Part shown: positions 15,281-15,721 of the stretch, one piece after another
Layout: each line of letters opens with the position of its first letter
Position numbering within the stretch: the stretch's first letter is position 1
Assembly (NCBI GenBank): GCA_964016885.1
Contig: OZ024742.1
Span: 295,802,001 to 295,866,000 of the forward strand
Length of the DNA stretch: 64,000 bases
Direction of reading: 5' to 3'
Origin: Eledone cirrhosa
Lineage: Eukaryota
The notes under the pieces: model-generated
The model's database searches: none
The model's input: the letters and a program-made list of their open reading frames with translations, nothing else
Told to the model about the DNA's origin: nothing
Translations under genes and position numbers: made by a program

Positions 15281-15283
<3 letters not shown>

Positions 15284-15643
15284 TATTTTGCAATACACTG
15301 TATGCTTAATTAAAAGCATTTCGAAGACCTTACGCTATTGTTTTAGAGTAGTGACAGTCTCACTTACTTTAAATTTTCAGCAAACAGGGGAGATAAAGCT
15401 GACAGAGCTCTGTTTCGTACTTTTTGGTACTTATCAAAGCTAAGTATTCCACCTGTTTGCTGAAAATCATGAATGTTTGATTCTTATAGAATTCTAGTGA
15501 TAATCAGGAACTGATTATACAGAGCGGTTGCCGGTCAAGCAGAAATTGAAAATTAGAATTGGTGCTCTGTCACTACTCTAAAACAATAGCGTAAGGTCTT
15601 CGAAATGCTTTTAATTAAGCATACAGTGTATTGCAAAATACAC
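15281..15643. mobile_element. Element with 77-bp terminal inverted arms enclosing a hammerhead, inserted in (TA)n
   Basis: 15281-15357 is the reverse complement of 15567-15643; both flanks are TA repeats. Confidence 0.85.
15373..15467 (-). ncRNA. Type I hammerhead ribozyme with compensated U3-A8 core and extended stem I
   Basis: Minus strand: ttttcagcaaacagg..agct TTGATAA gtac-caaaaa-gtac GAAA cagagctctg TC agct..cctgtttgctgaaaa. Confidence 0.85.
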
Positions 15644-15688
15644 TATATATACATTCATATATATATCGCTATTTCAGAGCACCAATTC

Positions 15689-15721
<33 letters not shown>

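Follow-up and report, generated by a model that had tools for sequence, protein, structure and literature searches.

Non-LTR retrozymes and their proposed mobilisation by Penelope-like elements (PLEs) have been described in metazoans (Cervera and de la Pena, 2020, PMC7229834; Li et al., 2026, 10.64898/2026.07.22.740005), and only one of nine Xenopus retrozyme dimers has been reported to cleave in vitro (10.64898/2026.07.22.740005). The enzyme that mobilises retrozymes in animals has so far been argued from co-occurrence and homology. PLE insertions themselves are recognised by an inverted 5'-truncated copy, a tail of 30-40 bp that is often found at one end, and a bias towards (TA)n and other microsatellites (Craig, 2021, PMC8557442). 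The tail has been attributed to the stretch between two internal start sites of reverse transcription (Frangieh, 2024, PMC11167929), and the same in vitro work has described cutting of AT-rich DNA on both strands by the PLE enzyme as well as insertion for which hammerhead cleavage is dispensable (PMC11167929). Natural hammerhead cores in which the 3-8 pair is U3-A8 have been reported together with a mention of earlier in vitro activity (Perreault, 2011, PMC3088659), and minimal hammerheads with U3-A8 have been counted in about 1,300 hits for the Cercyon PLE of Schistosoma (PMC4209133). Natural U3-A8 hammerheads, retrozymes and the PLE tail footprint are therefore all published. Neither a PLE tail footprint on a retrozyme nor repeated switching of the 3-8 pair within one family has been found in the literature covered, which consisted of main texts and included few subscription papers; the supplement of PMC7229834 may list the family treated here.

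The locus described below lies in a 64,000-nt stretch of DNA from Eledone cirrhosa (the window). It is a two-armed, head-to-head insertion of a 320-nt tandem-repeat element carrying a U3-A8 hammerhead, very probably a non-LTR retrozyme that has been copied into (TA)n by a PLE reverse transcriptase-endonuclease. This reading builds on features observed directly, namely the anatomy of the insertion, its copy number, the 320-nt period, the compensated core and stems, and two fixed 3' ends with their pairing. Judged by its sequence, the element represents a new retrozyme family, in which the core variant is a known one and the insertions bear what would be a PLE scar. The ribozyme motif is composed as follows:

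15374-15466, minus strand: type I hammerhead with an interrupted and extended stem I
15466-15452 with 15388-15374, minus strand: distal stem I, 15 bp
15441-15438 with 15400-15397, minus strand: proximal stem I, AGCU/AGCU, 4 bp
15437-15431, minus strand: core UUGAUAA, i.e., U3 U4 G5 A6 U7 A8 A9 (U3 at 15437, A8 at 15432)
15430-15417, minus strand: stem II, GUAC-CAAAAA-GUAC, 4 bp
15416-15413, minus strand: GAAA
15412-15403, minus strand: CAGAGCUCUG
15402-15401, minus strand: U16.1/C17
15402-15413, minus strand: stem III, a 12-nt perfect palindrome running from A15.1 to U16.1
15401, minus strand: C17 of the GUC site; cut predicted 3' of it, between 15401 and 15400
15447, minus strand: G-to-A change adjoining loop I

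The preliminary description had proposed a hammerhead with core UUGAUAA and a U3-A8 pair, a GUC site, a palindromic stem III and a 15-bp distal stem I past an internal loop, and each of these parts has been located at the positions given above. The elements by which a type I hammerhead is defined (core C3UGANG8A, GAAA and UH, three stems, a Watson-Crick 3-8 pair) can be read from the sequence, the 3-8 pair by way of the known U3-A8 covariation, and the motif, whose swapped base pair is rare but known, is predicted to cleave the RNA that carries it. The 93-nt hammerhead region folds at −36.9 kcal/mol (z −6.9), a value that none of 200 shuffles has reached. Rfam HH9 (RF02275) matches 15378-15455 with E=0.0015 and 23.8 bits, below its gathering score of 52, a threshold reached by no family anywhere within the 64-kb window. 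Loop II, CAAAAA, is identical to the HH9 consensus loop. As to the proposed docking of loop I on loop II, the loop letters in general fit that consensus, yet they differ between subfamilies. Compared with the majority sequence of 140 U3-A8 copies, the window copy differs at 2 of 230 sites. Position 15447 is G in 131 of the 140 aligned copies and A here. The minimum-energy fold of the monomer is an inactive one in which AGCUUUG is paired with CAGAGCU, and the active fold of the window copy is predicted to lie 3.9 kcal/mol above the ensemble.

The family to which this copy belongs has at least 1,698 core matches in the 3.0-Gb genome, as obtained from three relaxed patterns that do not overlap (1,291 + 119 + 288) and for which the reversed controls gave 0; a DNA search of the genome has returned 2,038 candidates, of which 40 were scored. 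Units follow each other head to tail with a period of 320 nt, in simple loci up to about three units, and each is non-coding, low in GC and equipped with one type I hammerhead. This is the composition of a non-LTR retrozyme, i.e., many copies of a non-coding tandem unit of 150-450 bp with a single type I hammerhead per unit. When joined into a circle, the 320-nt monomer is predicted to fold at −78.9 kcal/mol (z −5.9), with 0 of 100 shuffles as low. In one locus (L061, C1:268922000-268931999) retrozyme units form a rearranged array whose higher-order period, about 1.16 kb, suggests local amplification at the DNA level, and in two others (L035 and L084) neighbouring tandem units of a single arm come from different subfamilies, which suggests mixed multimer templates or jumps of the reverse transcriptase. 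A depth near 400 for one contig over the hammerhead, against about 5-35 for the other contigs listed of that run, stems from a run of unrecorded kind and has not been counted as evidence of expression.

A genomic copy survey had been called for in the preliminary description and has now been run; the uncompensated mixtures that would have spoken against the proposal are not what it shows. Matches to an exact 30-mer in which positions 3 and 8 were left free number 297, and these close copies comprise 294 with U3-A8, one each with A3-A8, C3-A8 and U3-G8, and none with C3-G8, the state found in sister subfamilies. Hand counts of the first 100 listed matches from each pattern group gave 96 U3-A8, 0 C3-G8 and 4 mismatched copies for the hexaloop group (100 of 1,291), 70 C3-G8, 24 U3-A8 and 6 mismatched for the pentaloop group (100 of 119), and 76 C3-G8, 14 U3-A8 and 10 mismatched for the older lineage (100 of 288). 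Given a divergence of 2-5% from the subfamily majorities, the mismatch rates agree with ordinary decay; among the matches listed no amplified subfamily with a mismatched 3-8 pair has been seen, mismatches being scattered, and those mismatched copies that the tree includes do not cluster. That tree has been built from 65 copies, with the largest subfamily limited to a random 16, truncated copies left out and positions 3, 7 and 8 masked. Two lineages split at 100/100, and both states of the pair occur in each, so that three changes are needed, or two when weak forks are opened, and a single U3-A8 clade is rejected (p-AU 0.0003). As sister subfamilies carry C3-G8 and U3-A8 does not form one clade, the pair has switched two or three times. 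The tree being unrooted, one of these switches may be a return to C3-G8, and a short template switch may lie behind the spread of U3-A8 between lineages. In the older U3-A8 subfamily (L217, L228-L236), the base of stem II is moreover occupied by an A-A mismatch (10.1-11.1), a second deviation from the usual pair next to the core.

Covariation has been examined in 19 copies, whose hand-picking and relatedness inflate the scores: both partners have changed in 9 of 26 pairs, the 3-8 pair and three of the four stem II pairs among them, while the stem III pairs show no variation in this set and are thus uninformative. All core bases except 3, 7 and 8 are invariant in the 19 copies, which come from subfamilies differing by 17-21%. 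Among the first 100 hexaloop matches listed, 22 carry a compensated stem II variant; as it arose inside the U3-A8 group, pairing was still kept after the switch. Taken by sequence, this argues for selection that would have acted on master RNAs and not on the window copy. The earlier proposal that the change of both 3-8 partners speaks for selection on catalysis accordingly stands in part, in that compensation holds and the stems covary, with the evidence concerning the master elements instead of the copy in the window. It is improbable that a PLE-moved family merely retains the U3-A8 hammerhead as a weak or silent relic, its double change having hitchhiked or been template-switched and RNA structure alone having been selected. 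Such an account would draw on the copies being non-independent, with two or three switches only, on an 11-nt stretch around the core that two U3-A8 subfamilies from separate lineages share without a difference, on the predicted misfolding of the monomer, and on the dispensability of cleavage in vitro cited above (PMC11167929). The conservation of the remaining core bases over such divergence, the lack of an amplified mismatched subfamily among the matches listed, and the stem II compensation inside the U3-A8 group speak against it.

A retrozyme inserted by a PLE is what the structure around the hammerhead points to. The insertion consists of these parts:

15281-15569, minus strand: long arm, 289 nt of the 320-nt monomer (unit positions 1-289), end class A
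15567-15692, plus strand: short arm, monomer 213-320 plus 1-18, without the hammerhead, end class B
15567-15569: inversion junction, a 3-nt overlap of the two arms
15652-15692, plus strand: one-sided tail past the perfect inverted repeat
15212-15280: left (TA)n target microsatellite
15693-15712: right (TA)n target microsatellite

The long arm is 5'-truncated at 15569, and its 3' end enters the TA repeat; as the ends lie within (TA)n, any target-site duplication, which in non-LTR retrozymes exceeds 4 bp when present, is hidden. Perfect inverted arms of 77 bp had been noticed before, and 15281-15357 and 15567-15643 are indeed identical over 77 bp, or 85 bp including the TA run. These arms are the overlap of two head-to-head, 5'-truncated pieces and not terminal inverted repeats. 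The further inverted fragment, previously put at ~15674-15691, exists one base on, at 15675-15692, as part of the one-sided tail. With one hammerhead only, the window copy would be unable to release a monomer circle alone and is probably a dead-end insertion.

The same architecture has been surveyed in 60 loci out of the first 100 listed of the 297 exact 30-mer matches (42 on C1, the first 15 on C2, and three places on C2 chosen for multiple hits). There are 42 head-to-head junctions, distributed over 41 of the 60 loci, and one tail-to-tail junction. Arm lengths range from 26 to 746 nt, with an inner boundary that differs in nearly every copy, and 5' ends occur all around the unit. For the 3' ends there are two fixed sites, of which A belongs to the TA-rich part of the unit and B lies about 30-45 nt beyond A, and in nearly all cases (TA)n comes next. 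At least one end could not be classified in 17 of the 42 junctions; the other 25 comprise 24 A+B pairs, one A+A and no B+B (binomial p=8e-7 at even odds). A+B pairs likewise account for 24 of 25 in the 30 best-hit loci, which were picked for their likeness to the window and include near-duplicates, and for 10 of 12 and 5 of 7 in older subfamilies, as determined by a rougher method. An inverted 5'-truncated copy, a one-sided tail and a microsatellite target, i.e., the footprint of PLE type, are thus all found. A cleaved linear monomer finds no support as the template: 2 of 84 5' ends are situated 5 nt or less from the cut site, about what even scatter would give. A circle and an uncut multimer are indistinguishable in this role, because the differences per 100 sites amount to 5.4 between tandem units, 4.4 between the two arms and 6.4 between random pairs. 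A core substitution level of 1.3%, against 2.3-3.6% elsewhere, has been set aside as evidence because most loci were selected by the exact core pattern, and the crossing of the cut site by 77 of 81 arms is subject to the same selection bias.

At least two large PLE families of the genome show the same end behaviour; both have a minimal hammerhead of the C3-G8 kind, and their 3' ends fall at two fixed sites. A 4.7-kb family (L130-L136), to which belong most of the first 100 entries in a list of 2,964 canonical-core matches and which has a GIY-YIG match at E=0.011, has ends about 99 nt apart that are paired in 11 of 11 two-armed loci (by eye). The second family (L168-L197) has 24,827 candidates and many copies with open frames of 775 aa, in which the RT and GIY-YIG scores lie slightly under the curated cut-offs; the spacing of its two ends is about 40 nt (of 30 rows, 16 have the short and 14 the long end), and as a candidate driver of the retrozyme it fits the tail length better than the 4.7-kb family. 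By its motifs, the second family looks Neptune-like. Some retrozyme copies have PLE insertions as their target, either in the flanking (TA)n or inside the element (L168, L097), an instance of nested targeting. Within the window, 16150-16345 forms a perfect 61-bp hairpin whose arms each begin at a CUGAUGA...GAAA motif, in a layout resembling the minimal hammerhead of the 775-aa PLE, and the right arm has about 70 extra nt ahead of (TA)n, which is the same footprint of inversion plus tail. Another motif resembling a minimal hammerhead, with a long stem II, is seen at 12826-13025, where it ends in (TA)n and is preceded by a short piece of its 3' end in inverted orientation, and broken PLE-like frames with RT-like and GIY-YIG-like motifs (by eye) occupy 61591-63374 on the minus strand.

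Given an insertion signature of PLE type and a report that retrozymes derive from pseudo-LTRs (10.64898/2026.07.22.740005), the copies might be taken for truncated 3' ends (pseudo-LTRs) of an autonomous PLE instead of a separate retrozyme. We consider this very improbable: long arms run back into another 320-nt unit and never into an ORF, no frame with RT and GIY-YIG being present within the arms of 92 loci of the window subfamily (nearby PLE frames are separate insertions); 5' ends are scattered around the unit; and outside TA repeats, the monomer lacks homology to the 4.7-kb PLE and to 30 loci of the 775-aa PLE. A MITE, or another derivative of a DNA transposon, that has terminal inverted repeats of 77 bp and a TA target duplication and carries a hammerhead by chance would account for the perfect arms and the TA flanks, but is largely refuted, and has next to no probability left, in view of the variable inner boundary and length of the arms, of two outer ends that are different sites and not fixed equivalents, and of units that follow head to tail at 320 nt. 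From the TIR-like cassette in which the ribozyme had been placed, the ribozyme remains; the cassette is not a fixed one, its arm length varying by copy and its outer ends being unlike.

For the retrozyme moved by a PLE, the following course may be proposed by analogy with the systems cited. Tandem copies would be transcribed and cut by their hammerheads, probably as a double hammerhead formed via the palindromic stem III, and the resulting monomers would be ligated into circles. The PLE protein would nick both strands of a TA tract, and each strand would prime reverse transcription at its own internal site of the RNA, the two sites being about 30-45 nt from each other. The two truncated cDNAs would then join head to head, giving variable inverted arms with a tail on one side.

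A more specific and tentative reading links the 3-8 pair with stem III. In both lineages U3-A8 accompanies a perfect stem III palindrome and C3-G8 an interrupted one, with predicted duplex energies for U3-A8 and C3-G8 of −20.1 vs −12.2 and of −11.1 vs −6.9 kcal/mol. If the pair is swapped to C3-G8 in the palindromic background, the active fold is predicted to become more costly by about 3 kcal/mol in 74 of 75 copies (from 3.9 to 6.8 kcal/mol in the window copy), apparently because the swap turns the 5' core strand into a copy of the 3' half of stem III. Three natural dimers with U3-A8, which come from two loci, have the double hammerhead predicted about 1 kcal/mol from the ensemble and two single hammerheads about 17, as against 4.1 and 7.8 kcal/mol, respectively, for one C3-G8 dimer. 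It is possible, though doubtful, that the 3-8 pair is an evolutionary toggle tied to stem III and, jointly, that the strict A+B pairing is a direct genomic footprint of the PLE enzyme moving the retrozyme. According to the folding model, U3-A8 would remove a helix competing between the 5' core strand and the palindromic stem III and so yield a dimer-dependent ribozyme, C3-G8 would spread only where the palindrome is interrupted, and each target strand would use a different internal priming site. Against the toggle stand the presence of two independent contrasts only, a swap that is without effect in the older U3-A8 subfamily, and an older C3-G8 subfamily that thrives despite a predicted cost of 8.7, all of these values being secondary-structure predictions. 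Misfolding as the sole account of U3-A8 is incomplete, given that same lack of effect and given that the monomer combination predicted to be best, U3-A8 with an interrupted palindrome, did not amplify.

Copies of this kind are liable to be mislabelled as MITEs and are missed at the Rfam gathering threshold. As the insertions bear the PLE-specific footprint of tail and inversion with mapped start sites, an in vitro PLE assay on retrozyme RNA could test mobilisation directly, and the matched natural C3-G8 and U3-A8 ribozymes can be used as they are to ask under which conditions a non-standard catalytic core is favoured.

With metazoan non-LTR retrozymes, the family shares the non-coding tandem unit, low GC, one type I hammerhead per unit, a self-paired predicted circle and the presence of PLEs in the genome; it differs in that its largest subfamily is U3-A8 and in that it is known here from DNA alone. 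Most of the inspected loci show head-to-head inversions and a one-sided tail in (TA)n, whereas the main text of the 2026 preprint contains neither 'tail' nor 'head-to-head'. Compared with EN+ PLEs, there is agreement in 5' truncation, partial tandems, an inverted 5' copy, a tail at one end, (TA)n targets and a type I hammerhead, whereas the retrozyme lacks an ORF, has a canonical instead of a minimal hammerhead, and bears no similarity to the two PLE families compared. Rfam HH9 has the same type I layout, UAC in loop I, CAAAAA in loop II and the GUC site, from which the present motif departs by its 23.8 bits against 52, its U3-A8 pair and its palindromic stem III. The compensated core pair itself is that of other natural U3-A8 hammerheads; unlike in the earlier cases, it occurs here in the canonical, extended hammerhead of a retrozyme, and the C3-G8 sisters make two or three switches traceable within one genome.
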